From Bacteroidales bacterium (GTDB lineage: Bacteria > Bacteroidota > Bacteroidia > Bacteroidales > WCHB1-69), in assembly GCA_017961265.1 (NCBI GenBank), contig JAGCXN010000021.1, positions 4,793 to 68,792 on the forward strand: a stretch of 64,000 nt of DNA, read 5' to 3'. Of the stretch, positions 7,789 through 47,284 are shown piece by piece. The notes beneath the pieces were generated by a model. It did not search any database. It saw only the letters and a list, made by a program, of their open reading frames with translations, and was not told where the DNA came from. Positions within the stretch are counted from its first letter, which is position 1, and every line of letters starts with the position of its first letter. The position numbers and the translations under genes were made by a program.

Positions 7789-9444
7789 TTAATAATGAAA
7801 ATTACTGCCGCCGACGAACTCCCTAATAATGGAAACGCCAGGGATGTTCTTTTCGAGGATGGGTTCGAAATAGGAGAGGAACTTCAGCAGACGGCACGCT
7901 TCGGCATATTCCGGAACCGTCTCGGGCACCTCGTTCAACACGGGCACAGCGTAGGGTTTGAGAATGCCCAACTCGTAAATAAGGGCGGTATTGATCATGT
8001 CATCGGCGTTTTCCTGATAGGGGAAAATGTTACGGACTTCGCCGTTACGCACGCTCTGCCAGCGTTTTAGCGTTTCCAGAGCGGAATAGCCGCGGTACTT
8101 GTGGTCGCGTACGATGCGACGGATCAGGCGGTTATCGCTGGTGGGTATCGGGTTCTGCGAGTCGATGGATATCGAGGTAAGCGCCGATACATATATTTTA
8201 TATTTGGCTTCGTCGGGGATGGAGGCGGTGAGACGCGGGTTCAGGCAGTGGATGCCCTCCACCACCAGAATGGAGTTTTCCTCCATCTTTATGGTTTTGC
8301 CCTCCCATTTCTTGCTTCCCGACGGGAAATCAAACGTGGGCAGCGGCATCTCCTTTCCTTCCGCAAGACCCAGCAATGTCCTGTTAAACAATTCCAAATC
8401 AATGGCTTCGAGAGCCTCGAAGTCAAATTCTCCGTTCTTGTCGCGGGGAGTTTCGTCCCTTTCTACGAAGAAGTCGTCCACCGAAATCTGCACCGGCTTG
8501 TAGCCCAGCAGTTCCAATTGGACTGAAAGTCGCTTGCAGGAGGTCGTCTTCCCCGAGGAAGACGGACCGCAGATCAGCACCATTTTCACCCCTTTGCGGG
8601 CGGCGATATTATCGGCAATTCTTGCGAAATTGCGTTCCAGATTGGCCTCCGTCAGATGGATAAGTTCAGCGATACTTCCGTCCAACACCTTGTCGTTCAA
8701 GTCCATGACATACGGTACACCGAAGCGGCTGGCCCAGTCCTTGTACTCTTTATACACGGAAAACAACTTGGGCAGCATGCGTGTGGCGTTAATCTTTTCG
8801 GGATGGGCGCGCGACGGAGCCTTCAGCAAAAGCCCGCTTTCATATTTCTCTAATTTGAAAGAGGTCAAGTAGCCCGTAGAAGGCAGCAGAAAACCATAAT
8901 AGTAGTTGATGCAATCGTCCAATCGATAGATGCTGGTGTAGATACGGCTGCGATGGCGGAACATCTTCTCCTTTTCGTCCATGCCATAGCTTCGGTACTC
9001 CTCAAGTGCCTCTTTGGTAGGAAGTTCTTCGCGTCTGAAGGGCAGATTTTTTCTCACCAATTCCATCATACGCGATTCCAGAGTGCGGGCCACCTCTTCC
9101 GTCACTCCGCCCCCCAGTCCGTCCAAGGCGCAGTATTTGCCGCTGGAGATGGAGTGTAGGATACGCAGTTTCACTCCTGGAAGCATATCCTTAACCGCCT
9201 TGAACAACAGAAAATAGAGCGAACGGCAGTACATCGCACTCCCATAAAGAGAAGTAATATCGAAAAAGTTGATTTGCGACGGCTTGTGAATCCGGTAGGT
9301 CAGGTCGCGCACCTTGTTGTTGACCAACGCGCCCAGAATCGGGTTCGGCAGTTTCACATTCTCCGCCTTGGCGATTTCCATCAGCGAAGTCCCAAAGGGA
9401 TAATCTTTCTGTGTTTTGGTATTAAGGCTAGTAATGGTTATCAT
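7789..9444 (-). CDS. uridine-kinase/PRK-family nucleoside kinase fused to an N-terminal TGS/ThrRS-like domain
   Basis: Walker A (ICGPSSSGKTT) in the C-terminal half and a beta-grasp-like N-terminus. At 551 aa it matches the Bacteroidales long udk-like proteins. Confidence 0.6.
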   Translation of the reverse strand: MITITSLNTKTQKDYPFGTSLMEIAKAENVKLPNPILGALVNNKVRDLTYRIHKPSQINFFDITSLYGSAMYCRSLYFLLFKAVKDMLPGVKLRILHSISSGKYCALDGLGGGVTEEVARTLESRMMELVRKNLPFRREELPTKEALEEYRSYGMDEKEKMFRHRSRIYTSIYRLDDCINYYYGFLLPSTGYLTSFKLEKYESGLLLKAPSRAHPEKINATRMLPKLFSVYKEYKDWASRFGVPYVMDLNDKVLDGSIAELIHLTEANLERNFARIADNIAARKGVKMVLICGPSSSGKTTSCKRLSVQLELLGYKPVQISVDDFFVERDETPRDKNGEFDFEALEAIDLELFNRTLLGLAEGKEMPLPTFDFPSGSKKWEGKTIKMEENSILVVEGIHCLNPRLTASIPDEAKYKIYVSALTSISIDSQNPIPTSDNRLIRRIVRDHKYRGYSALETLKRWQSVRNGEVRNIFPYQENADDMINTALIYELGILKPYAVPVLNEVPETVPEYAEACRLLKFLSYFEPILEKNIPGVSIIREFVGGSNFHY

Positions 9445-9525
9445 TTTTCAAGTTAAAAGTTTAGAGTTTCTAATATTTTGTTTCAAGTTAAGGAGTTAAA
9501 ATGTGAAGATGCAAAGATTTTTTAG

Positions 9526-9554
9526 GTAGAGCCGTCATAATATGGCGGCTGATC
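9526..9554. repeat. REP-like hairpin GTAGAGCCGTCATAATATGGCGGCTGATC
   Basis: Arms AGCCGTCATA / TATGGCGGCT with one G-T position. A near-identical copy lies at 15228-15256. Confidence 0.75.
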
Positions 9555-9570
9555 GGTGGGTTTGTAGAAG

Positions 9571-9654
9571 GTGATAGGTAATAGGGAATCGGTGATAGGT
9601 GATAGGTAATAGGTAATAGGTAATAGGTGATAGGTAATAGGTAATAGGTAATCG
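9571..9654. repeat. heptanucleotide tandem array (GTRATAG)n, 12 units
   Basis: Read directly as gtgatag gtaatag ggaatcg gtgatag gtgatag gtaatag x3 gtgatag gtaatag x2 gtaatcg. Confidence 0.9.
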
Positions 9655-9674
9655 TATAATCGCATCCTCTATAA

Positions 9675-9726
9675 TTTTCAATTTTCAGTTTTCAATTTTC
9701 AGTTTTCAGTTTTCAATTTTCAGTTT
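9675..9726. repeat. heptanucleotide tandem array (TTTTCAR)n, 7 units
   Basis: ttttcaa/ttttcag alternate. The array contains the uvrA stop codon (9706-9708) and its last five codons. Confidence 0.9.
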
Positions 9727-12549
9727 CCCCCGGAGGAATTGGCCTGTGTGTGATTCCGCTACGGAGGCGACCTCTTCGGGGGTGCCGGCACAGACGAGTC
9801 CGCCGCCCGCGTCGCCGCCGTCGGGACCAAGGTCAATCACCCAGTCGGCGCACTTGATGAGTTCGGGGTTGTGCTCAATCACCACGATGGAGTTCCCTTT
9901 TTCTATCAGACGATTGAAAGCCTGGTACAGCTTGTTGATGTCGTGGAAGTGAAGGCCCGTCGTCGGTTCGTCAAAGATGAAGAGCACATTCTGCTTGCTG
10001 TCCCCTTGCGAGAGGAAGAAGGCCAGCTTCACACGCTGCGACTCACCGCCGGAGAGCGTATGCGACGGCTGCCCCATCTTGAGGTAGCCCAGCCCGACAT
10101 CCTGCAAGTAGCGCAGGCGCGTGGCTGCATTGATGGCGGGACGGGGCGGATCCTGAAGCCCGTCAAGGAACTCAATGGCTTGATTGATCGTCATATTCAA
10201 GACATCACTGATGTCCTTGCCACCCACCTTCACCTCCAGAATCTCGTCCTTGAAATGCTTGCCGTGACATTCGGTGCACTCCAGGTCCACATCGGCCATG
10301 AACTGCATGCTGACGTGGATGACGCCTTCGCCTTCGCACTCCTCGCAGCGTCCGCCGGGAGTATTGAACGAAAAGAAGGAGGCCTTGTAGCCGCGCTGCT
10401 TCGACAGCGGCTGCGAGGCGAACAGGTCGCGGATGTCGTCGTAAGCCTTGATATAGATGGCCGGATTGGACCGCGACGACTTCCCTATCGGGTTTTGATC
10501 GACGATGATGACCTCCGAAATTCTGTTGAGGTCAGCATCTATACGGGTATGACGTCCCACGCGGTCACTCCCCTCCCCGAGCATTTTCTGTAAACCCGGA
10601 TAGAGGATGTCCTTGATGAGCGTGCTCTTTCCCGAGCCGCTTACGCCCGTGACGAGCGTAAGCACCTGCAACGGAATTTTCACGTTGATATTCTTGAGGT
10701 TATGTTCCTTCGCCCCGACGATTTCCACATAATTCCGCCACTTCCGTCGCAAGGTAGGCACCGGCAGACAGCGGCTGTCGGGCGCGTCGGGGTTCTCCAT
10801 CCCGCGGATGTAGGCCGCCGTCAGGTCCTCCTTCTGCTCCATCAGCTGCGGGAACGTGCCGTGGAAGACGATTTCGCCGCCCAACCGTCCGGCGCGGGGA
10901 CCGATGTCGATGATATAGTCAGCGGCACGGATGATCTCTTCGTCGTGCTCCACCACCACAACCGTGTTGCCGAGGTCTCGGAGCTGCTTCAGCACCCCGA
11001 TCAGCTGCTTGGTGTCACGGGGGTGGAGTCCGATGCTCGGCTCATCCAGCACGTACAAGGAGCCGACGAGGCTGCTGCCGAGCGACGCAGCTAGGTTGAT
11101 ACGCTGCGACTCACCGCCCGACAAAGTCCGCGACGAGCGGTTCAGCGTCAGATAACCCAGCCCCACCTCCATCAGGAAGGTGAGCCGGTTGACCAGTTCC
11201 ACCAGAATGTGCTTGGCGATTTTCTCTTCGTTCGCGCTATCGAAAGTGAAATTCTTGAAAAATTCGTAAAGCTCCGAAATCGGCATAGCCACCAGTTCCG
11301 TTACAGACTTTCCCTTGACTTTCACGTAGGTGGCCTCCTTGCGCAGACGCAGCCCCCGACATTCGGGACAGGTGGTGCGCCCGCGGTAGCGGCTGTATAG
11401 GACACGATACTGAATCTTATACTTCTGGGTATCCACAAAATCGAAAAATTGTTTGATGCCATAGACCTCGTGGTCGGGGTCGCCGTTCCAGAGGAGGTCA
11501 TACTCTTCGGGGGTGAGGTCCTCCACAGCGCGGTGGAGCGGGAAGTCCAAACGTCCGGCGGCGCGGATGAACAGCTGCTTCCACTCGCTCAACTTCTCGC
11601 CGTGCCAGCAGGCCACCGCGTCTTCAAATACAGACCGCGACGGGTCGGGGATCACGAGGTCGGGGTCGATGCCGTCCACGATGCCGGTGCCTCCGCACTC
11701 GGGACACGCCCCGTAAGGGCTGTTGAAACTGAACAGGTTGAGCGAAGGCTCCTCGAACTTGATGCCGTCCATTTCCATATTGGCACTGAAGCTTTTCTGC
11801 CGGCATTTGTCCTCCGCTTCCGTCTGCACGACGCAGACACCTTTGCCTTCGGTGAAGGCCGTCTCCACGGAGCCGGCGATACGCGCCTGCGAATCCTCCA
11901 TCGAATTGGCTTTGAAACGGTCCACCAACAGGAACAGCGCGTTCTGTTTCACTTTCTTCTTTCCTTTCGGAAAATCTTCAATATCAATAAGTTCCTTATC
12001 GTAAACGAGGCGACTATAACCCTCTTTGGCGAGGATTTCCAGCTGTTCGTCCAGGGTGCGTCCCGCAAGGATGACGACGGGAGCCATCACATAGACTTTC
12101 GTGTCGGGGGCAAGGCCTTCGATGTGACGGAGGACATCGGCGACGGTCGCGCGCCGCACCTCCTCGCCGCTGACGGGAGAAAAGGTGCGCCCGATGCGGG
12201 CGTACAGCAACTTGATATACTCGTAAATTTCCGTCACCGTGCCAACGGTGGAACGGGGGTTGCGCGAGATGACGCGCTGCGCGATGGCGATGGCGGGCGG
12301 GATGTTCTGGATGGACTCCACGTCCGGCTTGGTGATACGCCCCATAAACTGGCGGGCGTACGAGCTGAGGCTCTCCACATAGCGACGTTGGCCCTCCGCA
12401 TAGAGCGTGTCGAAAGCAAGCGACGACTTGCCGGAACCCGAAAGGCCGGTGATCACCACCAGCTTGTTCTGCGGAATCTCCACATCCACATTCTTCAGGT
12501 TGTTGACCTTCGCCCCTTTTATTATTATCTTATTTTCAGTCATATACAA
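9706..12549 (-). CDS. uvrA: excinuclease ABC subunit A
   Basis: Two ABC ATPase modules ([24 protein letters not shown]), Zn-finger Cys clusters and LSGGE signatures. The last five codons (LKIEN) and the stop lie inside the TTTTCAR heptad array. Confidence 0.95.
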
Positions 12550-14532: not shown

Positions 14533-15159
14533 CTAACTTCTTTTGATATAACTCTTTTCAAATTCTGTGCGACTGAGCAGCGAACGTCCCAGCGTGACCT
14601 CATCCGTGTATTCCAGTTCATCACCGATGCCGATACCACGAGCGATGGTGGTGATAGCAGCGACTTTTCCCTGTATATTTCTGTAAATGTAGAAGTTGGT
14701 GGTATCACCATCCACGGTGGCGGGCAGTGCAAGGATGACCTCCCCCACCCCACCGGCCTCCACACGCTGGAAGAGACTGTCGAGGTTCAAGTGCTGTGGC
14801 CCGATACCCTCCATCGGGGCAATCACCCCGCCCAACACATGGTAAACGCCATTGTACTGGTTGGTGTTTTCGATAGCCACCACATCCCGGATGTCACGTA
14901 CCACACAGACAATCTGTTTGTTACGCTTCGGATTGGCACAAATCTCACACAATTCCGTATCCGAAAGGTTATGACATTCACGGCAGTAGCACACCTTGTC
15001 CTTCAGGGCGATGATGGCATCCGATAGCAGCTGCACGTCGCCACGCTCCATCTTCAGGATGTGCAACGCCAAACGCAAAGCCGTCCGCTTGCCGATGCCC
15101 GGCAGCTTCGATATTTCGACGATCGCGTCGTCCAGTTGTTTTGAAAATCCAATCTCCAC
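14533..15159 (-). CDS. recR: recombination protein RecR
   Basis: HhH motif (KLPGIGKRTALRLALH), Cys4 finger (CRECHNLSDTELCEIC) and Toprim domain (VCVVRDIRDVVAIE). A GTG start at 15159 gives a canonical ~208 aa protein. The ORF-track ATG at 15240 sits inside a REP hairpin and would add 27 residues encoded by nonamer repeats. Confidence 0.85.
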   Translation of the reverse strand: MEIGFSKQLDDAIVEISKLPGIGKRTALRLALHILKMERGDVQLLSDAIIALKDKVCYCRECHNLSDTELCEICANPKRNKQIVCVVRDIRDVVAIENTNQYNGVYHVLGGVIAPMEGIGPQHLNLDSLFQRVEAGGVGEVILALPATVDGDTTNFYIYRNIQGKVAAITTIARGIGIGDELEYTDEVTLGRSLLSRTEFEKSYIKRS

Positions 15160-15164
15160 GGTGG

Positions 15165-15227
15165 TTACAAGTTCATAAAGTTTATAAAGTTCATCAAGTT
15201 TGTCAAGTTTATAAAGTTCATCAAGTT
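15165..15227. repeat. nonanucleotide tandem array (YRTMAAGTT)n, about 6.5 units
   Basis: cataaagtt tataaagtt catcaagtt tgtcaagtt tataaagtt catcaagtt, abutting the REP hairpin at 15228. In the recR frame it translates as LDELYKLDKLDELYKLYEL. Confidence 0.85.
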
Positions 15228-15256
15228 GTAGAGCCGTCATAGTATGGCGGCTAATC
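15228..15256. repeat. REP-like hairpin GTAGAGCCGTCATAGTATGGCGGCTAATC
   Basis: Same family as 9526-9554. Its loop supplies the ATG at 15238-15240. Confidence 0.75.
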
Positions 15257-15279
15257 AGTAGTTCCGTAATGAACTTTGG

Positions 15280-16707
15280 TTAATATATACTTGCTTGGGT
15301 TGCGGAATCGCTAACTTTCTTTTTCCAGTTGAAGACGATGCCGAACTGGAAATTCGGATTCGAGAGACGGGTGCGGTTGATGGCGGGAATGATGTTCTCG
15401 CAACTGGCGAAAATGGTCACCACTTTCAAATTGAAGCCCAAGCCAATGCCCAAGTTGTCGTAACTGTTTTTCATCAAGGTATAGGCAACACACAGATCCA
15501 CCCATTCGGTGAAGGACGCGCTGTAAGCCAATGTCAGCGACGGGACCAGTGTCCTGCCCACGCGGGCGGCCTGCACCAGAGCCGAAAAGCGGTGTTTGTC
15601 GTTCAGATTATAGTCAAACTGCACCATCAAACGGGTATTCAGTCCCGTGGTGTACCTCTTTATCATGTTGGCTTCCAGGGAGAAATAATTCAGCAAGGAA
15701 TCCACCACTTCTTCCTGATATGAGCTGTTGGACATGAAATTCTCCAATTCATCTTCATTGAATCCTGCAAACAAGAAACCGCCATCCTGGTAGCGGGCAC
15801 CATTATCTTTCACTTCACCTGAAAGTTTGTAAGCACTTGATTTCCATGAAATGAATCCGAGATCAAGCACACTTGCAGACAATGTATAGTGATCGTTGAA
15901 GCGGTATTGCACGCCAAAGTCCCAGCCCAATCCGAAATTTTTATAGATATTGCCCAGTGCAAATTCATCGGCCAACAGTTCAAAATGCTGCTCTCCGAGG
16001 GTGGGGTTAATACGGTAGGGCACGATACAGGAGCTATTCATATCCAGCTGATATTTCAATAAAATGCTGTATGAGGTGGGATCGGTGGCTATCTCTGCGG
16101 ACATTCTCCTTGTATTGATATTAGCCAATCCTATCAGGAATTTCTGCCGTGCTCCAAAACTCAGATGTTTGTTGAGCCGGTATTGAGCCCCTGCGCTCAG
16201 TTCCCGATAGGCGTTGACCTGCAGCTGCATATTGATGTCGGCAGGCTTGTCGGTATAGGCCATATTTCCCAAAAGCACCATTCCAAAAAAATCTTTTGAG
16301 GCTGAAAAAGCGGCATTGGCTTTCAGCCGGTAATCAAAAGAGAGGAACAAATTGTTCAAACGGAAACCAAAACCCACAATTTCCGTACTGAAATCGGCCA
16401 CTAACCAATTGTTACGTTTACTCAAACTATTTACAAATCTCTGACTTGTAAGATGCGTAGGATAACCATCCTGTTTTTCAAATAGTTTCCCATAGCGGAA
16501 CGTGGGGTTATACACTCCGGCTTGCAGGTTACTGATGACGGGCAAGGCGATATATGCGTCACACGGTGCGAAAGTTCCGGGCGAAGTGTAAATCTGCCAC
16601 GGATTATAGCGCATAAAATGCACCATCTCGCTGGTTTGCGCATGAATATTGGAAACCAACAAGCTCAAAATTAAGCACAATCCTATTTTAATATATCCTC
16701 TTTTCAT
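15280..16707 (-). CDS. signal-peptide protein, predicted outer-membrane beta-barrel of unknown function
   Basis: Signal peptide MKRGYIKIGLCLILSLLVSNIHAQ and alternating hydrophobic beta-strand patterns throughout. I recognise no catalytic motif. Confidence 0.4.
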   Translation of the reverse strand: MKRGYIKIGLCLILSLLVSNIHAQTSEMVHFMRYNPWQIYTSPGTFAPCDAYIALPVISNLQAGVYNPTFRYGKLFEKQDGYPTHLTSQRFVNSLSKRNNWLVADFSTEIVGFGFRLNNLFLSFDYRLKANAAFSASKDFFGMVLLGNMAYTDKPADINMQLQVNAYRELSAGAQYRLNKHLSFGARQKFLIGLANINTRRMSAEIATDPTSYSILLKYQLDMNSSCIVPYRINPTLGEQHFELLADEFALGNIYKNFGLGWDFGVQYRFNDHYTLSASVLDLGFISWKSSAYKLSGEVKDNGARYQDGGFLFAGFNEDELENFMSNSSYQEEVVDSLLNYFSLEANMIKRYTTGLNTRLMVQFDYNLNDKHRFSALVQAARVGRTLVPSLTLAYSASFTEWVDLCVAYTLMKNSYDNLGIGLGFNLKVVTIFASCENIIPAINRTRLSNPNFQFGIVFNWKKKVSDSATQASIY

Positions 16708-33423: not shown

Positions 33424-33452
33424 GTAGAGACGTCATACTATGGCGTCTCTAC
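33424..33452. repeat. REP-like hairpin GTAGAGACG-N11-CGTCTCTAC
   Basis: 9-bp perfect arms located 7 nt after the gcvT stop, so it probably also acts as a terminator. Confidence 0.75.
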
Positions 33453-35895: not shown

Positions 35896-36033
35896 CAAAA
35901 CCTGTTTTGTAACAATTTTGTAGGTTTTCTGCCCAAGCATTGTCACTTTTTGTCGGAATCCTGACACTTTTTATCTTTCTGTTTTTCAGAAAAATAGCAG
36001 AAAACACCTCTTGAAAAAGCATTTCGGTTGCTG

Positions 36034-36041
36034 TATCTTTG
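36034..36041 (+). promoter_or_regulatory. -7 box TATCTTTG upstream of the PDDEXK_2 remnant
   Basis: Lies 29 nt upstream of the ATG at 36071. Confidence 0.45.
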
Positions 36042-36070
36042 CGGCTCAAGTACTACCTAAAAAAGACAAA

Positions 36071-36642
36071 ATGAAAAGGAAGAAGCAAAAGCAAGAGGTG
36101 CGGGTAGTGAAGAACCAGAACGGCGACCGTTTCATCGTGGAGATGCAGAACGGATGGCAGAAGCATTTCGGCGAGCGTGCAATTGTCTATGCGGGCCGGG
36201 CTGCCGGGCAAAGTGTGAAGAGAGGTGACAATCTGTATGAGAATGTCAAAGGCGTATATTCCTTGAACATAGTGGCTTACAATATGCCAGAATTCAAAGG
36301 AAAGAAGAAATTCTTTTGGAAAGTCTATCTGAAGGATGACCAAAACAAAATTTTTTCTAAAAAAAACGTCCTCTATTTCGTGGAATTGAGTAAATTTGCC
36401 GCCCAGTTGGGAACATTGGATATGGCCGACGAGCGTAACCATTGGCTCTATATGCTGACGCAGGCCGTGCATTTGAGCCAGGACGATGTGGAGGCGATGA
36501 CGCCGGTGTTCCAGCGGTTTTATGAGGAATGTCAGATTACAAAATTTACGGATATGGATACCTCCTTGCCTTAGGCATCCCCCTCGGTGATGTAGCCAAA
36601 GCTACAGGACTGACAGAAGACCAAATCCGAAAGCTTCAGTAG
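36071..36642 (+). pseudogene. decayed PD-(D/E)XK nuclease-family (PDDEXK_2 / Rpn-like) transposase-like gene
   Basis: The core motif RFIVEMQNGWQKHF and the later YFVELSKF...WLYML are present. The usual ~60-residue N-terminus is missing. The family-typical C-terminal tail GIPLGDVAKATGLTEDQIRKLQ is encoded at 36574-36642, in a different frame from the body, which stops at 36572-36574. Confidence 0.55.
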
Positions 36643-36726: not shown

Positions 36727-36759
36727 CCGTAGAGACGCCATAGCATGACGTCTCTACGG
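36727..36759. repeat. REP-like hairpin CCGTAGAGACG-N11-CGTCTCTACGG
   Basis: 11-bp perfect arms. Confidence 0.8.
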
Positions 36760-36786: not shown

Positions 36787-36814
36787 GTAGAGACGATGTG
36801 CACATCGTCTCTAC
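36787..36814. repeat. REP-like perfect 28-bp palindrome GTAGAGACGATGTG/CACATCGTCTCTAC
   Basis: Read directly. It lies 27 nt downstream of the giant gene's stop codon. Confidence 0.85.
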
Positions 36815-36820
36815 CATCTC

Positions 36821-36848
36821 CTATTCACTATACCCTATACCCTATTCC
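36821..36848. repeat. heptad array CTATTCA CTATACC CTATACC CTATTCC (the complement is related to the GGTRATA family)
   Basis: Four units. The last unit contains the giant gene's stop codon (36842-36844). Confidence 0.7.
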
Positions 36849-39800
36849 TTCACCACCTTCCGCACCGCCATCACCTTGCCGCCATTCACCATTCTTACGA
36901 AATAAACGCCGGTGGCATAATGCGACAGGTCGATTTGCACGGTCTGTACGGACGCACTGCGTGCGTCCGAAATATCCACAGCATCCAACACCCTACCGTA
37001 TACATCCAACACCTGAATCTCACCAGCCCCTAATTGTACATTGTTCATTGTAAATTGTACATTGACCATCCCCGTGGTGGGGTTGGGATAGAGGGAGAGG
37101 ATGCCGTCAGCGTAGTCATCAATTCCTGATATCGTCACATCAATACATTCTGTTGTATCCGTACATTCGCCCATCGTGATGACACATGCATATTGACCTG
37201 AAATTGCTGGATTAAATCTCTGGTGCACCTCACCTTCAATTGTTTCATTGGTTTCACAATCAATCCACTGATATTCAGCACCTTCTTGCATCACTTCAAG
37301 CGACCAAGCATCTAGTTCTTCTGTTGTTGTCACCAATACTTCAGTATTAATCGTAATCACCGTCAGGTGCAACGTAACCACACTGTCGCAGCCGTTGGCA
37401 TTGGCGAACGTCTGCACATAGTCACCGGATTCTTCGTAAACCTCATCGTTCCAGACGTAACTGCCGCAAGCTGTTTCTGTGAATTCTGTGGTGTCGGCGA
37501 CATTGATGGTCAGGTGCAACGTCACCACACTGTCGCAACCGTATTGAGTTGAAAATTGAAAATTGAAAACTGAAAGGTTGGGGGTGCCAACATCGAAGGT
37601 GGTGTCGATGTCGCCGTTCACGTAGTGGTATGGAAGGTCGTTCTCGCAGAGGGTGACTTCGACAAGCTCAGTCACCGCCGGATGAATGGTGAGGTGCAGC
37701 GTAACAGTGCTGTCACAGCCATTCGCTGCCGTGAAAGTAGCGGTATAGTCCCCGGAAGACGTCAGCGTCTCGCCATTCCACTCATATTCGTCGCATGCGG
37801 TCATGTGGGTCTCATTCACTACTGGCTGGTTAATGGTGAGGTGCAGCGTAACCGTACTGTCACACCCCGCCGCATTCGTCAAAACGTCGGTGTAGTCGCC
37901 GCTTTCGGTGAGATTGGTGTAGCCGTGCCAGTCGAAGCTGCCGCACGCCGTGGCGGTGGTGTCGCCCTCGGTCGGTGTATTGATGGTGAGGTGCAGCGTG
38001 ACGGTGCTGTCACAGCCCGCCGCATTCTCTATAACGTCGGTGTAGTCGCCGCTTTCGGTAAGGTTGGTGTAGCCGTGCCAGTTGAAACTGCCGCAAGCCG
38101 TGGCGGTGGTGTCGCCCTCAGTAGGTGTGTTGATGGTCAGGTGCAACGTCACAGTGCTGTCACATCCAGCGGCATTCGTCAAAACGTCGGTGTAGTCGCC
38201 ACTCTCGGTGAGGTTGGTATAGCTGTGCCAGTTGAAACTGCCGCAAACCGTGGCGGAGGTGTCGCTCTCAGTAGGTGTGTTGATGGTGAGATGAAGTGTG
38301 ACAATACTGTCGCAGCCCTCGGCATTTTCCAAAACGTCGGTGTAATCACCGCTTTCGGTGAGATTGGTGTAGCCGTGCCAGTCGAAGCTGCCGCATGCCG
38401 TAGCGGTGGTGTCACTCTCGGTCGGCTCGTTGATGGTAAGGTGCAGCGTCACCACACTGTCGCATCCATTCGCCGCAGTAAAAGTAGCCGTGTAATCTCC
38501 CGAAGCCGTAAGTGTTTCGCCGTTCCACTCATATTCGTCACATGCCGTCATATAGGTCTCATTCTCCACCGGTTGATTGATGTTAACCGTCAGTATCACC
38601 GTGCTGTCACACCCGTATTGAGTTGAAAATTGAAAACTGAAAATTGAAAGGTTTGGTGTGCCGACTTCAAAGGTAATGTCAATGTCGCCGTCCACGTAGT
38701 GGTAAGGAAGTTCACTTTCGCACACGGTGACTGAGCTTGTCGAAGTCACCGCGGGGTGAACAGTGAGATGCAGGGTGACGGTACTATCGCACCCAAGGGG
38801 AGTTAAAAGTTGAAAGTTAAAAGTTGAGAGCTGGGGTGTACCGACCTCGAAGGTGGTGTCGATGTCGCCGTTGATGTAGTGGTACGGAAGTTCACCCTCG
38901 CAGATCTCATGGGTGAAGGAGGTGACGATGGGCGTACAGCCGCCGGTGCTGAAGTGCCACACTGCCGACCACACCGAGTTGCCCACGCCGTTGTACCCCT
39001 GTACCCGCCAATAGTAGGTGGTAGCGGGACGGAGATTGTGGATGGAGGCGGTGGTCTGTGCGGTAGTGCCCTGCGCAAACAGGGTGGAAAAATCGCTGCT
39101 GGTGCTCACTTGGTAGCGGTAACCGTTGACGTTGGCCAGCGTGTCCCATTGCAGAGCCAGAACAGATTGGAAGTCAATGTCGGAAGAGTCGTTGGCAGGC
39201 GAGACAAGCGTCGGTCCGGTGGTGAGCTGGTAAGGTGTGGTGAACCTCCAAACCGTTGACCAGCTGGAGGTGTCGGGGGCATTGCTGTTGATAGCGCACA
39301 CCCGCCAATAGTAGGTGGTGCCATATTGCAGTTCTGCCTCTGTGATATAGACACTTGCACCTGATGCGGTGAAGGTCGCAAATAACGGAGAGTTGAAGGT
39401 TGCAGCAGTGTCCCACTCCAGAATATAATGGTCGGCTCCCGTTACGCTATTCCAATAAACGGTAAGACGGGAATTGCTATAGGAGGAGAAGGCTGTTCCA
39501 TCGGCCGGTGAGGTCAGTACGGGTGCATCGCTGGTGGTGAACCTCCAAACCGTTGACCAGCTGGAGGTGTCGCTGTCGTTGCTGTTGATAGAGCACACTT
39601 TCCAGTAATAGGTGGTGCCGAAATTCAGCTCTGTGATATAAATACTTGATGCTGTGGCGGTGAAAGTCTCGTACAACGGAGAGTCAAAGGTGGGCACGGT
39701 GTCCCATGCCACTATGTAATGTCCCGCACCTGTGACGGAATTCCAATAGACGGTGGCTTTTACTGAGTTGGTATAAACGTAGCCGTCGCTGGGGGAGGTC

Positions 39801-43746: not shown

Positions 43747-43778
43747 CTTTCAATTATCAGTTTTCAATTTTCAGTTTA
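43747..43778. repeat. heptad block CCTTTCAATTATCAGTTTTCAATTTTCAGTTT in the 5' leader of the giant gene
   Basis: It lies between the -7 box (43789-43796) and the ATG (43736-43738). It is an inverted copy of 38622-38651, matching at 27 of 29 positions with a 17-bp perfect core, and of 37548-37577. Confidence 0.85.
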
Positions 43779-43787
43779 AAAGGACGG

Positions 43788-43877
43788 CAAAAGTACACAC
43801 ATTTTTTTGAATATTTATCCCTTCAAAACAGAAATGTGAACCCTCACAAAGGGATAAAGTGGGATGCGAGGATACGG
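43788..43877. repeat. left copy of a ~90-bp direct repeat flanking the ATPase cassette; contains the giant gene's -7 box
   Basis: Shared strings with 45209-45300: GCAAAAG(T/C)ACA, GAAAT(G/A)TGAACCCTC(AC/GT)(A/G)AAGGGA and ATGCG(A/G)GGATACG. Confidence 0.7.
43789..43796 (-). promoter_or_regulatory. -7 box (TACTTTTG) for the giant T9SS cargo gene
   Basis: Lies 50 nt upstream of the ATG at 43738. The intervening leader consists almost entirely of heptad repeats. Confidence 0.55.
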
Positions 43878-43965
43878 AAGTCATATCTCAACCTCCGCTT
43901 TTACAAACTTTTCAATCTAAAGTAAAAAAAAGATGTGGTTTTTTACTTTGAAAAGTAAAAAATTG

Positions 43966-43973
43966 TATTTTTG
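43966..43973 (+). promoter_or_regulatory. -7 box TATTTTTG for the AAA ATPase
   Basis: Lies 13 nt upstream of the ATG at 43987. Confidence 0.45.
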
Positions 43974-43986
43974 CAGCACATTAAAA

Positions 43987-45189
43987 ATGATAGATATGGA
44001 CCGATTATTTAAGGCGTATGGCCGTCTGTTGGCGGAAACCGATTTGAAATTCACCCGATATTTATATGATAATATCAACTGGGACAATCGGTTGATTGTG
44101 ATCAAGGGTGCAAAAGGAGTGGGTAAAACGACCTTGATGTTGCAACACATCAAGAAAGATTTTCCCAAAGCGGAAAAGGCTCTGTATGCCTCGCTTGACC
44201 ATTTGTGGTTTGCCACACACTCCATCCTTGATTTGGCAGAATATCATTATACGCATGGGGGAACGCATCTTTTTCTGGATGAGGTACACAAATACAAAGG
44301 ATGGCAACAAGAAATCAAGAATATTTATGATTCCTATCCCCAGCTACATGTTGTTGTAACGGGTTCATCCATGCTAAAAATCGACGAATCGTTATCCGCA
44401 GACCTTTCACGCCGACATCGTCTTTATACGATGGAGGGACTTTCGTTTCGGGAATACCTGAGTCTTGAGCATGTGGTGGAATTGCCGATCTTTTCGTTGG
44501 AGGAAATTCTAAACAACCATTTTGTGATGGCTTCACAAATCACATCAGATGTGAAAGTGCTACACCATTTTGAAAAGTATCTGAAGTCGGGCTACTATCC
44601 GTTTTATCGGGAAGAGGAGGATGGCTTTTTTGACAGGTTGCAACAAGTGATTGAAACTATTATCACCAATGAAATACCATCGGTTAGCAATATTGAATAC
44701 GATTCTGTATATAAAGCCAAGCAATTGCTGGCAGTATTGGCCGAGCAATCACCTTATACACTGAACATTTCATCTTTATGCAACACCTTGCAATCTTCCA
44801 GAAACAATGTGGTGAAACTGCTTGACCTGATGAGCAGGGCGGCCTTGATTCGTCGGCTTTATGCATCGTCGGATGGAATGAATATGTTGACAAAACCTGA
44901 AAAAATCCTCTTTTACAATACCAATCTGATGTTTTGTCTCACTTCGAACGTCGATGCGGGCACTTTGCGTGAAACTTATCTCGCCTCTCAGATTGGCACA
45001 GCGCACAAACTTTCCATGCCGGAAAAGGGAGATATAGTGGCAGATGGGAAGTGGCTTTTTGAAGTAGGAGGGAAAAGCAAGGGTTTTTCGCAGATCAAAA
45101 ATATTGAAGCGAGCTACGTGGTCGCTGATGATATGGAAATCGGTCACGGCAACAAAATTCCACTGTGGCTTTTCGGACTGCTGTATTGA
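43987..45189 (+). CDS. AAA-family ATPase (AAA_14 plus DUF4143-type architecture)
   Basis: Walker A (GAKGVGKTT) and Walker B (LFLDEVH). The C-terminal half is typical of stand-alone Bacteroidales ATP-binding proteins. I prefer the ATG at 43987, with a -7 box at 43966-43973. Confidence 0.65.
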   Translation: MIDMDRLFKAYGRLLAETDLKFTRYLYDNINWDNRLIVIKGAKGVGKTTLMLQHIKKDFPKAEKALYASLDHLWFATHSILDLAEYHYTHGGTHLFLDEVHKYKGWQQEIKNIYDSYPQLHVVVTGSSMLKIDESLSADLSRRHRLYTMEGLSFREYLSLEHVVELPIFSLEEILNNHFVMASQITSDVKVLHHFEKYLKSGYYPFYREEEDGFFDRLQQVIETIITNEIPSVSNIEYDSVYKAKQLLAVLAEQSPYTLNISSLCNTLQSSRNNVVKLLDLMSRAALIRRLYASSDGMNMLTKPEKILFYNTNLMFCLTSNVDAGTLRETYLASQIGTAHKLSMPEKGDIVADGKWLFEVGGKSKGFSQIKNIEASYVVADDMEIGHGNKIPLWLFGLLY

Positions 45190-45208: not shown

Positions 45209-45300
45209 GCAAAAGCACAAAAATTTCCTGAAAATTCACCCTCTTCACGGCCGAAATATGAACCCTCGTGAAGGGAAAAAAGAAATGCGGGGATACGATT
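45209..45300. repeat. right copy of the ~90-bp direct repeat; its -7 box is degenerate (TGCTTTTG)
   Basis: See 43788-43877. It is followed by three GGATACGA mini-repeats up to about 45338. Confidence 0.7.
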
Positions 45301-45669
45301 ATGCGGGGATGTGGGGATACGAGGATGAGAGGATACGATTAGAATCCTTTTTTAAACACCTTGCAGCCATAAGCCGAAGAAGGGGTCATACACCATATAT
45401 GCGGACTTTTCCTGTGTTATGAAATCTTTTTGTATCAATAATTTGCCGGCAAAATACAACTTTTATCCTAGATAGGATAATCCTGATTAGGATAATTTTA
45501 CATTTTTCGGAGCGAGCCACCAGAGTTATCATGGTAATTTCTGAATATATCTGTTTCTCTATTAGTTACAAGACCTCAAAGTCAAGAAAGGTACGAAGCC
45601 GTTCCATTCTCTCTTCCGCGGCATCACCTACGGTGTTCTTCTTTACCTGTCGCCCGTGCCGCGGGCACC

Positions 45670-45710
45670 TTCGACAAGCTCAGGCCCCCGCGGTGGTTGA
45701 GCCTGTCGAA
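45670..45710. repeat. REP-like hairpin TTCGACAAGCTCA-N15-TGAGCCTGTCGAA
   Basis: 13-nt arms with one mismatch. An overlapping alternative stem is GGTGGTT/AACCACC. Confidence 0.65.
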
Positions 45711-45851
45711 ACCACCGCCTATTAAAATATCACCTCTCCGAGGTGAGTGAGAGTATGTCAATACTCACAGACATACGGCACGATTCCGAAGTCGCACGCC
45801 GCCTTGCGATTTTTGCCGTTAAGAAATCGTGTAGCGGCAAACTACTTTTTA

Positions 45852-45888
45852 CCTATCACCTTTTACCTGATACCTATTCACCTTTTAC
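45852..45888. repeat. imperfect heptad array CCTATCA CCTTTTA CCTGATA CCTATTCA CCTTTTA
   Basis: Read directly. It lies just upstream of the -7 box of the 45947 gene and is related to the complement of GGTRATA. Confidence 0.6.
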
Positions 45889-45946: not shown

Positions 45947-47284
45947 ATGAGAAACCTTATCGCCCTTTTCGCCACCATTTTCATTTTAATGTCCTATTCG
46001 TTCGCGCAGACGTGCGGCTGCACCGACCCGCTCGCGACCAACTACAACGCCAATGCCACCGTAAACGACGGCAGCTGCGTGTATGCCTCCGCCACCATCA
46101 GCGCGACGGAAATCGGACAACTTGGCGAGACACTGGACGGCAGCTCCACCCTCCTCTTCTGGAACGGCGGCTACTGGACCTACAACGACCACAACGACTG
46201 CTGCCTCTACCGCATCGACAGCACCACCGCAGCCACCATCGAGACCTTGTGCATCAGCGGTATCGGAAACTACGACACGGAGGAGGTGTCGCAGGACAGC
46301 CTCTACCTCTACTTCGGCGATTTCGGCAACAACAGCGGTGTGCGACAGAACCTGCACATCCTGCGCATCAGCAAGGAATCCCTTCTAAACCAGACATTTG
46401 TCGTCGATACAATCTGGTTCTCATACGAAGACCAGACCGACTTCACCTCGCACCCGCAGGCCACCGACTTCGACTGCGAGTCGTTCATCGTCACTGCCGA
46501 CAGCATCTACCTCTTCACCAAGCAGTGGGCTTCGGAACAGACTACCATCTACGGACTGCCGAAAACCCCTGGCACGTACGTCGCCCACCGACTCGAAACG
46601 TACAACGTGGGCGGACTCGTCACTGGCGCCACCTACGTCCCCGAATACCGTCTGGCCGCCCTCTGCGGCTACGACTACAACGGCGGAAGCTACCTCTCCT
46701 CCCTCCATCCGTTCATTCTGTTACTCTATGATTTTCAAGGCGATGACTTCTTCTCTGGAAATAAAAGAAGGCTCGATTTCGGTACATTGGTCAAGGATCA
46801 GGTGGAGGCCGTCGCCACCAGCAACGCCATGGACTTCTACATCACCAACGAGCACTTCACCACCACGCAGCTGGGCATCACCATTGACCGCCCGGCGAAG
46901 CTGCAGCGGCTGGACCTCCGCGACTACCTACTCCCCTACCTCGCCACGTTCGAGACCGAGCCGGAAGACACCGTCCCGACCGACACGGTGCCGACAGACA
47001 CCATCGTCACGCCACCCGACACCACCGGCATCCCGCAGTTCGGTACCGACGGGTTCCGCATCTACCCCAATCCCGCTTCCGACCAGCTGCATATCGACTA
47101 TCCGCAGAATTTCAAGGGGGCAAACTACGAAATAATGAACCTGAGCGGACAAAAAATAGCCAAAGGCATTTTGAAAGATGACACTATTTCATTGAATAAC
47201 AAGAGATTCAATACTGGAAAATACATTTTGGTCATCAGGGGAAAAGAAGGAGTAAAATCGTTCATTTTTATAAAAAAAGAGTAA
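45947..47284 (+). CDS. T9SS C-terminal-sorting-domain protein of unknown function
   Basis: Signal peptide MRNLIALFATIFILMSYSFAQ and a C-terminal FRIYPNPASDQLHIDYP...GKYILVIRGKEGVKSFIFIKKE. A short TVPTD repeat linker precedes the sorting domain. Confidence 0.6.
   Translation: MRNLIALFATIFILMSYSFAQTCGCTDPLATNYNANATVNDGSCVYASATISATEIGQLGETLDGSSTLLFWNGGYWTYNDHNDCCLYRIDSTTAATIETLCISGIGNYDTEEVSQDSLYLYFGDFGNNSGVRQNLHILRISKESLLNQTFVVDTIWFSYEDQTDFTSHPQATDFDCESFIVTADSIYLFTKQWASEQTTIYGLPKTPGTYVAHRLETYNVGGLVTGATYVPEYRLAALCGYDYNGGSYLSSLHPFILLLYDFQGDDFFSGNKRRLDFGTLVKDQVEAVATSNAMDFYITNEHFTTTQLGITIDRPAKLQRLDLRDYLLPYLATFETEPEDTVPTDTVPTDTIVTPPDTTGIPQFGTDGFRIYPNPASDQLHIDYPQNFKGANYEIMNLSGQKIAKGILKDDTISLNNKRFNTGKYILVIRGKEGVKSFIFIKKE

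Follow-up and report, generated by a model that had tools for sequence, protein, structure and literature searches.

What kind of element occupies the 261 bp between the uvrA gene of a Bacteroidales bacterium and its downstream neighbor, where a palindromic hairpin stands beside two different arrays of 7-nt repeats, and do these parts belong together at all? The spacer lies in a 64,000-nt stretch of DNA (GenBank assembly GCA_017961265.1, contig JAGCXN010000021.1, positions 4,793 to 68,792), which we call the window and from whose first letter all coordinates are counted. An initial annotation had proposed that hairpin and arrays form a single composite repeat family, or share a generating mechanism, that could not be assigned to a described element class. 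Our analysis finds parts of known kinds whose fixed coupling is a new element, and the spacer is probably one copy of a lineage-specific, selfish or neutral mosaic of uncultured gut or rumen Bacteroidales centered on a repetitive extragenic palindrome (REP), similar in build to the bacterial interspersed mosaic elements (BIMEs) of E. coli, that would have been copied in blocks between spacers and remodeled by slippage in 7-nt steps. The spacer and its flanking genes are composed as follows:

7789–9444, minus strand: PRK-family gene of 551 aa, downstream of the mosaic and the ancestral neighbor of uvrA.
9445–9525, plus strand: degenerate AAGTT-type repeat module (caagttaaaagtttagagtt...caagttaaggagttaaaa); AAGTT/AAGTG-type units also lie 5' of the hairpin in the related loci L019, L025, L073, L085, L121, L122, L125, and L130.
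9526–9554, plus strand: single-foot GTAG REP in which GTAG precedes a stem of 9 bp (one conserved T.G pair; loop ATA); its tail reads GATC, not CTAC.
9551–9570, plus strand: conserved linker GATCGGTGGGTTTGTAGAA (family consensus AATCGGYAGKTTCGTAAAA).
9569–9652, plus strand: twelve GGTRATA heptads (Tandem Repeats Finder: period 7, 12.0 copies, score 126).
9653–9674, plus strand: 22-nt spacer module CGTATAATCGCATCC(TCTATAA), of which a 15-mer also occurs at position 7371 of L128, i.e., in another organism and at another locus.
9673–9726, plus strand: TTTTCAR heptads (Tandem Repeats Finder: 7.7 copies, score 80).
9706–12543, minus strand: uvrA, 945 aa, with KIEN plus stop beyond the usual ...GKL end of the family.

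The anatomy that had been described by eye holds with its coordinates. Read as GTRATAG, the first array comprises 12 heptads at 9571–9654, of which 10 fit exactly and two are degenerate (GGAATCG and GTAATCG), and the second consists of seven TTTTCAR units plus TTT at 9675–9726. In the hairpin, GTAG (9526–9529) is followed by the arms AGCCGTCAT (9530–9538) and ATGGCGGCT (9542–9550), which form a 9-bp stem with one T.G pair and fold as DNA with -7.4 kcal/mol (z = -3.7 vs shuffles). On the minus strand, the AAGTT-type module forms a G-poor leader that reaches the ATG (9444) of the PRK-family gene, the GGTRATA array reads TATYACC on the gene sense strand with no G and no stop, and the second array reads YTGAAAA on the uvrA sense strand. 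Chance does not explain either component: period-7 arrays with 3.5 copies or more number nine in the window and zero in 30 dinucleotide-preserving shuffles, whose best period-7 score is 38 vs 126 in the window, and the hairpin pattern GTAGAGMCGYCATNNNATGRCGKCT matches four window sites vs 0.00 expected.

A survey with this pattern, using one genome per species, returned at least 116 stretches, and the statistics on the hairpin family given here and below come from the matches listed. Most of them belong to Bacteroidales, Salinivirgaceae, Alloprevotella, and Muribaculaceae, with further matches in Chitinispirillaceae, Chloroflexia, Patescibacteria/Peribacteria, and one bin labeled Gammaproteobacteria, and the record names of related loci point to rumen and gut samples. 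The commonest form is a double-foot, 29-nt full palindrome (GTAGAGACGYCATnnnATGRCGTCTCTAC), and a single-foot form with GTAG on one side alone is found at 9526 and 15228 of the window and elsewhere. GTAG stands immediately 5' of the stem in every copy of the pattern. Covariation was scored solely at positions where the pattern left both partners free: base pairing at stem positions 7/23 is preserved in 196 of 198 copies (A-T 173, C-G 23, unpaired 2), and positions 10/20 hold T.G or C.A in 157, C-G in 41, and T-A in 0. The mismatch kept at 10/20 is therefore a conserved feature rather than a sign of decay.

In relatives, the palindrome is directly associated with a transposase. It lies within an open reading frame (ORF) bearing HUH and Y motifs in three loci from three phyla (L033, L094, and L106), and the hairpin-bearing ORFs match the NCBIfam family NF047646, REP-associated tyrosine transposase (RAYT or RayT), with E = 2e-14 to 4e-17, which is clearly significant although under the 80-bit equivalog cut-off. 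A hairpin-encoded peptide, VETPYYDVST or RDVPWRVST, stands just past the HUH motif (NH[IV]H) in 98 of the 120 homologs of the L033 ORF; some homologs carry two or three such peptides in tandem, and several have the JGI label RayT. Palindromes at 2934 and 3629 flank the RayT-like gene of L139 and L140 (3001–3648), which has two further palindromes inside it in L139. Clustering of ORFs over the at least 116 hairpin loci revealed no constant neighbor gene, the only relevant cluster being RayT-like, and no RayT ORFs were found between the inverted hairpin pairs of L043, L026, and L080.

Judged by its GTAG foot, its imperfect palindrome, and this association in relatives, the hairpin is a GTAG REP of the kind tied to subclass 2.4 of RAYT/TnpA_REP and thus REP-like, as had been proposed, but assignable to a known class. 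TnpA_REP subclass 2.4 is abundant in Bacteroidetes and Cyanobacteria and has canonical as well as "double foot" REPs, including in-frame REPs between HuH and Y (PMC6006769). Subclass-2.4 REPs (Bertels group 4; Quentin et al. 2018, PMC6006769) and GTAG REPs (Di Nocera et al. 2013, PMC3733652) share with the window family the 5' GTAG foot on an imperfect palindrome of ca. 25–29 nt, the coexistence of double-foot (GTAG...CTAC) and single-foot forms, and, in relatives, the placement of copies at the flanks of a RayT gene and in frame between HuH and Y. They are likewise scattered outside genes, in spacers whose flanking genes are co-directional or convergent, and some copies reach ORF ends, where they provide stop codons. 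Neither paper mentions a fixed link to ordered heptad arrays, and the 2013 survey placed GTAG REPs in Proteobacteria, Cyanobacteria, Chloroflexi, and PVC (Planctomycetes-Verrucomicrobia-Chlamydiae), with CGTC repeats alone in Bacteroidetes (PMC3733652). A search of the accessible literature returned no paper with this palindrome, and the hairpin strings gave primer matches alone.

Two side observations concern the RayT-like genes themselves. The hairpin peptide is often reiterated in the homologs (VETPTVETPTVETPYYDVST; VETPS eight or more times), which makes the REP region within the RayT gene a tandem-repeat hotspot. The RayT-like genes of L137 (3001–3690) and of L139/L140 sit in restriction-modification loci of related Bacteroidales, one adjoining an MmeI-like enzyme and the other between HsdS and a split HsdM.

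The arrays of the window belong to a known class as well, i.e., the intergenic heptanucleotide repeats (PMC4679880), which in many bacteria are more common than any other long simple-sequence repeat (PMC4679880; PMC4692102). TAACTGA heptamers are known from Beggiatoaceae, Cyanobacteria, and five Bacteroidetes, often beside other heptamer types in one spacer and with 7-nt indels between relatives (PMC4679880; PMC4692102). The window arrays share with them, with the long simple-sequence repeats (LSSR) of Mrazek 2007, and with cyanobacterial short tandemly repeated repetitive (STRR) sequences the head-to-tail 7-nt units, the frequent location just before starts or after stops, the several unit types per spacer, the 7-nt indels between relatives, and the presence in some Bacteroidetes (MacGregor 2015, PMC4679880). 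They differ in their unit sequences, and the published repeats are not known to have a REP partner or a set order of modules. The window arrays are not built of TAACTGA itself: the units are YTGAAAA, GGTRATA, and GGTATAG plus a single CTGATAA unit at 43748–77; YTGAAAA is one base off the CTGATAA rotation of TAACTGA. Across the listed hairpin loci, 142 arrays have period 7 compared to 21–27 for periods 6, 8, and 9, and called spacers contain 197 of the 291 short arrays.

Are hairpins and arrays coupled, as the initial annotation had suggested for both in general? For the hairpin family as a whole, 26 of 139 copies have an array of 5–12-nt units at most 50 bp away, while random placement in the called spacers of these loci predicts 14–20 (13.7 by exact enumeration, 20 by a crude simulation), a ratio of 1.3–1.9. 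The exact value supersedes the crude one, which overstated the expectation by scoring placements stuck on arrays as "near". A Fisher test per spacer gives an odds ratio of 1.6 (p = 0.056), and the double-foot copies are not significantly enriched (9 vs 6.1 expected, P = 0.13). Only the single-foot copies are (17 vs 7.6, P = 0.00015), and this excess is due to composite families, the window subtype among them. The figures for the whole family and for double-foot copies are what one would see if REP hairpins and heptad arrays were independent, both gathered in AT-rich spacers, and met by chance. The same is true of arrays without hairpins (43748 and 45843 in the window; L117–L120 in their sampled 5–12 kb) and of hairpins without arrays (33424 in the window; the RayT loci L137–L140, which are REP-rich yet heptad-free).

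What such chance meetings do not produce is the arrangement of the window subtype, GTAGAGCCGTCATnnnATGGCGGCT-RATC, which stands in the same mosaic in all copies found. Its order is AAGTT-type 7–9-mers, TTTCATTWK, REP, linker AATCGGYAGKTTCGTAAAA, GGTRAYA heptads, and TTTTCAR heptads, with an optional core B plus inverted array and then a spacer E between the two heptad arrays in the fuller version. Besides position 9526 and, in part, 15228 of the window, the mosaic is present in the metagenome-assembled genome (MAG) CAMVOL01 (L019, L025, and L085), in L073, and on ten metagenome contigs (L121–L130). Module order and linker are the same at 9526 and in L019, L025, L085, L122, L123, L125, L127, and L130, and partly so at 15228 and in L073; GGTRATA-type units follow the linker in L019, L025, L085, L121, L125, L127, L128, and L130, and a YTGAAAA-type array adjoins uvrA in L117–L120 and other genes in L019 and L125. 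At least 10 copies have different flanking genes, in several metagenome bins. A core profile built with nhmmer from the alignment of 14 distinct core sequences finds the copies used for its construction and further ones in L128, L135, and L136 with E = 1e-12 to 3e-19, including four cores within 13 kb of L128.

Non-repetitive parts are shared, too. The module CGTATAATCGCATCC is common to position 9653 of the window and L128, and a GGGnTTGTGCGTKGGAAACC module lies between inverted GGTRATA arrays in L085, L128, and L130. L019 and L125 have ca. 150 nearly identical nucleotides in common, including odd units (GGTAATAAGTA and TTCTCA), with unrelated sequence on both flanks, and in L127 an 83-bp block of REP, linker, and heptads is duplicated in tandem. 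Fixed order and shared idiosyncratic units are not expected from chance, so that the chance reading is largely refuted for this subtype, and we consider it very unlikely overall. The fixed coupling of the single-foot REP subtype with ordered heptad arrays is thus a new element, and the idea of a single composite family is upheld for this subtype across many loci and several genomes, but not for the hairpin family as a whole. A miniature inverted-repeat transposable element was considered and rejected: the aligned copies have neither a target-site duplication nor a terminal inverted repeat, and the only candidate repeat of the window copy is an 8-nt imperfect match absent from the other copies.

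A second composite family was encountered in Alloprevotella MAGs (L003, L004, L011, L012, L064, L068, and L084), where a single-foot hairpin is part of a longer conserved element (...CCATGCGGGACATATAGCGAAC-REP-...AGCATGCGGGAAATTCAC...) with (AGTAGTG)n of up to 16 units ca. 23 bp away. Several contigs end within mosaics (L136 at position 1 and the ends of L025 and L128); assemblies thus tend to break there, and copy numbers in short-read MAGs are underestimated.

Relatives of the window lineage document the locus without the element. In L131 and L132, whose UvrA proteins are 87% and 84% identical, the gene order uvrA-PRK-IPPT-23S IVP is the same as in the window and the uvrA-PRK spacer is a repeat-free 27 bp, so that the 261 bp of the window arose by insertion or expansion. 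An exact-sequence look-up found no record identical to the window UvrA. The two closest UvrA proteins, 92% and 91% identical and found in ENA metagenome assemblies (L117–L120), are followed by NTGARAA heptads (5 and 7 units), a CT-rich heptad array (4 and 7 units), and a convergent DUF5686 gene, with no REP; here, gene order breaks where the window has linker and REP.

The uvrA end itself carries a trace of this history. The final codons AAA CTG AAA ATT GAA AAC TGA (KLKIEN*) lie inside the second array with the TGA at 9706–9708, which substantiates the proposal that this array supplies the last residues and the stop of UvrA. Whether uvrA orthologs end before the array had been put forward as a check, and most Bacteroidales UvrA indeed stop at ...GKL, ...KKL, or ...SKL, whereas the window protein ends in GKL-KIEN and its two closest relatives in GKL-KTEN. 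The K(I/T)EN tail past the usual end indicates that the array overran the original stop, and another gene, in L125, likewise ends in ...KTEN* within a YTGAAAA-type array. The concern that a 7-nt period would shift the frame with every change in copy number does not hold here: on the uvrA sense strand each YTGAAAA unit contains TGA, and frames 0, +1, and +2 stop after 6, 1, and 3 codons, i.e., all within seven codons. A change in unit number would thus cost a few terminal residues at most. The same stop logic applies to a giant gene elsewhere in the window, where GGTATAG units supply the TAG.

Differences in length between relatives come in whole units. The uvrA-end arrays of three lineages have 5+4, 7+7, and 7+12 units, and two paralogous copies in L121 differ by exactly one GGTAATA unit. 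Could the REP machinery itself make the arrays, with the hairpin provoking nicks or replication stalls, or RAYT transferring strands repeatedly, so that element ends are reiterated in 7-nt steps? The arrays begin exactly at the core edge and their units resemble it (linker ...CGTAAAA, then GGTAAAA or GGTRATA), as is also the case for the Alloprevotella subtype with ...GAGTAGTCC beside (AGTAGTG)n. The spike at period 7 in the listed hairpin loci and the near absence of heptads from the sampled relatives without the element (L131–L134 and L141–L143) would fit as well, and the reports of subclass-2.4 RAYTs, like those of heptamer arrays, come mainly from Cyanobacteria and Bacteroidetes (PMC6006769, PMC4679880). 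Against this stand the lack of enrichment of double-foot REPs near arrays, the heptad-free RayT loci, and the heptads without REP in L117–L120 already described. We also know of no biochemical precedent, and heptanucleotide repeats are also common in genomes for which ordinary slippage of the polymerase was put forward as their cause (Mrazek 2007, cited in PMC4679880). We therefore regard it as quite improbable that the REP machinery makes the arrays and find it similarly doubtful that subclass-2.4 RAYT/REP systems and heptanucleotide arrays are mechanistically linked in that arrays arise from, or are kept by, the processing of a REP-bearing single strand.

The explanation that we favor, a REP-centered mosaic spreading between spacers, would work as follows. 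The core REP may form a hairpin in single-stranded DNA with its 5' GTAG foot and T.G mismatch, by analogy the kind of structure recognized by HUH/Y1 transposases of RAYT/TnpA_REP subclass 2.4. Together with the linker of ca. 20 nt it is flanked by AAGTT-type units on the GTAG side and by GGTRAYA and then TTTTCAR heptads on the other. Blocks of this mosaic might be duplicated or moved between intergenic sites by RAYT action on the REP, by recombination, or by both, and the arrays would then lengthen or shorten in 7-nt steps by slipped-strand mispairing. At uvrA, the mosaic would have extended the 27-bp spacer to 261 bp and overrun the original stop, presumably without harm because the TGA in each YTGAAAA unit stops all frames. 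The element would be mainly selfish or neutral and not regulatory.

Several observations weigh against this explanation. The 64-kb window has no RayT ORF, and it is double-foot copies from other Bacteroidales and from further phyla, rather than the single-foot subtype, that tie the hairpin to RayT. A mobile unit is delimited neither by a target-site duplication nor by a terminal inverted repeat or an excision footprint, and the copies in L121, L124, L128, and L129 precede tandem paralogs of one gene family and are thus not independent insertions. Instead of being brought by the element, part of the YTGAAAA array could be a local expansion of a native uvrA end of the form ...GAAAAA(C/T)T(G/A). 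Polymorphism in unit number between strains, which had been suggested as a test, was not seen in three assemblies of the same species: these have equal unit numbers and two substitutions in one unit, which speaks against hypermutable arrays over such a time span. In most cases, the GTAG strand is the antisense strand of the flanking genes: the heptad side faces the 3' end of a gene in 9 of 12, and a start codon lies on the AAGTT side in 11 of 15, a bias that could equally reflect selection at the level of RNA. The 261-nt sense RNA is almost unstructured (-20.5 kcal/mol) with unpaired arrays, and G is strongly depleted on the sense strand (GC skew of the plus strand +0.52 to +0.56).

The last of these points are what one would expect if the mosaic were a selected intercistronic module that acts as RNA. 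The hairpin would then mark or protect an mRNA end, and the G-poor heptads would keep the transcript open or bind an S1, Csp, or RRM-type protein to set the expression level of the co-directional genes on either side, in a phylum where translation starts without Shine-Dalgarno pairing. In addition, AACTT-type units reach to within 0–12 nt of the start codons of unrelated genes, among them the PRK-family gene, recR, dxr, and a DUF58-like gene, and translational roles have been proposed for TAACTGA and Nostoc heptamers (PMC4679880; bioRxiv 10.1101/2022.06.06.494920). However, the mismatch becomes C.A on the mRNA strand, which weakens the hairpin to -5.4 vs -7.4 kcal/mol on the GTAG strand, and selection on RNA should favor C-G; the conserved T.G thus argues for recognition as single-stranded DNA rather than for a role in mRNA. 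The types and lengths of the arrays vary freely among copies, there are exceptions to the orientation, and relatives do with a repeat-free 27-bp spacer between the same genes. An intrinsic terminator scan found no site at 9526–9554 on either strand, and on the gene strand CTACCTAAAAAA, rather than a T-run, comes after the hairpin. Rfam 15 at gathering threshold had no match in the window, with a sole chance-level match (E = 1.5) in a permissive search of 9440–9710. All in all, we rate an RNA-level module as rather unlikely. A sigma-70 scan, using a model not built for Bacteroidota promoters, found no promoter at the hairpin, and the idea of the mosaic as a small RNA gene found no support.

The recurrence of the same building blocks at other loci of the window is real. 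The 64 kb contain five hairpin copies in total, with fold z-scores from -3.7 to -8.3, and the further sites are these:

15169–15227, plus strand: 6.6 AAGTTYATA nonamers (AAGTT-type module) whose end lies ca. 7 nt away from a GTG, the likely recR start.
15228–15270, plus strand: second single-foot REP plus linker (AATCAGTAGTTCCGTAATGAAC; core profile E = 4e-16), with no heptads after it.
33424–33452, no strand assigned: double-foot REP GTAGAGACGTCATACTATGGCGTCTCTAC, with no array nearby.
36729–36757, no strand assigned: double-foot REP by hairpin pattern and fold.
36787–36814, no strand assigned: variant of the double-foot REP that differs in the upper stem (GTAGAGACGATGTGCACATCGTCTCTAC), by its hairpin fold.
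36820–36845, plus strand: 3.7 CCTATAC heptads, GGTATAG on the minus strand, with the TAG stop (36842–44) of the giant gene, which encodes 2298 aa and carries a type IX secretion system (T9SS) sorting domain.
43748–43777, minus strand: 4.3 YTGAWAA heptads, one of them CTGATAA, upstream of the giant gene at a distance of 9 nt from its ATG (43738).
45843–45888, minus strand: ca. six degenerate GGTRAWA-type heptads upstream of a gene at 45947.

At the recR copy, no clean empty site was found in relatives (L141–L143, 3880–4040), where gene order breaks instead: the DUF5723 gene is followed by clpB in these three, and by REP, nonamers, and recR in the window (15140–15320). This is a second break in gene order at a REP-bearing spacer beside that at uvrA in L117–L120.

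Other features of the window were noted in passing. The giant T9SS gene holds TTGAAAA/AGTTAAA heptad runs of ca. 27 nt each (37549–37575, 38623–38649, and 38801–38825) at homologous positions of repeated domains and in the stop-free orientation, and a 7-nt period in coding DNA points to an origin at the DNA level. The sorting domain of this gene and the UvrA homologs with a named source, which are labeled MAG Bacteroidales bacterium, identify the window as DNA of an uncultured Bacteroidales. A gene for a PDDEXK_2 protein (PD-(D/E)XK nuclease family "transposase") lies at 36011–36574, just upstream of the double-foot REPs at 36729 and 36787. A direct repeat of ca. 75 nt (GAAATRTGAACCCTC...AAGGGA...GATGCGRGGATACG) is found on either side of an AAA_14 ATPase gene (43933–45189), at 43826–43880 and at 45255–45340, where the second copy runs into an 8-mer array; an AAA_14/ATPase_2 gene is also present in one and absent from the other of L131 and L132, which suggests a mobile cassette. 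Finally, a G+C-rich and hairpin-rich stretch (45560–45730) lies in a 750-bp AT-rich spacer, with a best Rfam match of E = 0.8.

How does the mosaic compare with the composite repeats best known from enterobacteria? Like the BIMEs of E. coli, it combines REPs with conserved motifs in a set order, occupies spacers between co-directional or convergent genes, and exists in many copies. BIMEs consist of alternating inverted REPs, unlike the mostly one REP per copy here, and there is no sequence similarity, since neither the hairpin nor the modules resemble the consensus of the E. coli REP (GCCGGATG...); the listed matches of the hairpin pattern come from Bacteroidales and other non-enteric taxa. 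The additional modules of the window mosaic are, moreover, mostly tandem arrays of 7–9-nt units with variable length. In Nostoc, i.e., in another phylum and with other sequences, work by Elhai and colleagues in 2008 reportedly described small dispersed repeats (SDR) that are tiny, form hairpins, and are embedded in tandem heptamer arrays.

The spacer 3' of uvrA thus reveals no new kind of system: its parts are of known kinds, and what is new is their fixed mosaic in Bacteroidales. REPs and heptanucleotide arrays have long been known, with poorly understood origin and function, and have so far been treated separately. A fixed REP-heptad mosaic with a clean empty site in relatives offers a concrete, dated insertion that bears on the RAYT-type spread of REPs, on the seeding of 7-nt arrays, and on the effects of both on neighboring genes. 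It also extends the GTAG REPs to gut and rumen Bacteroidales and explains artifacts in annotation, i.e., array-encoded C-terminal tails (...KTEN/KIEN) and contig breaks in these spacers. If the link between RAYT/REP systems and heptad arrays were true, it would explain why both are concentrated in Bacteroidetes and Cyanobacteria and would provide a common enzyme for the cyanobacterial STRR, the TAACTGA repeats, and the SDR-in-heptamer phenomena.

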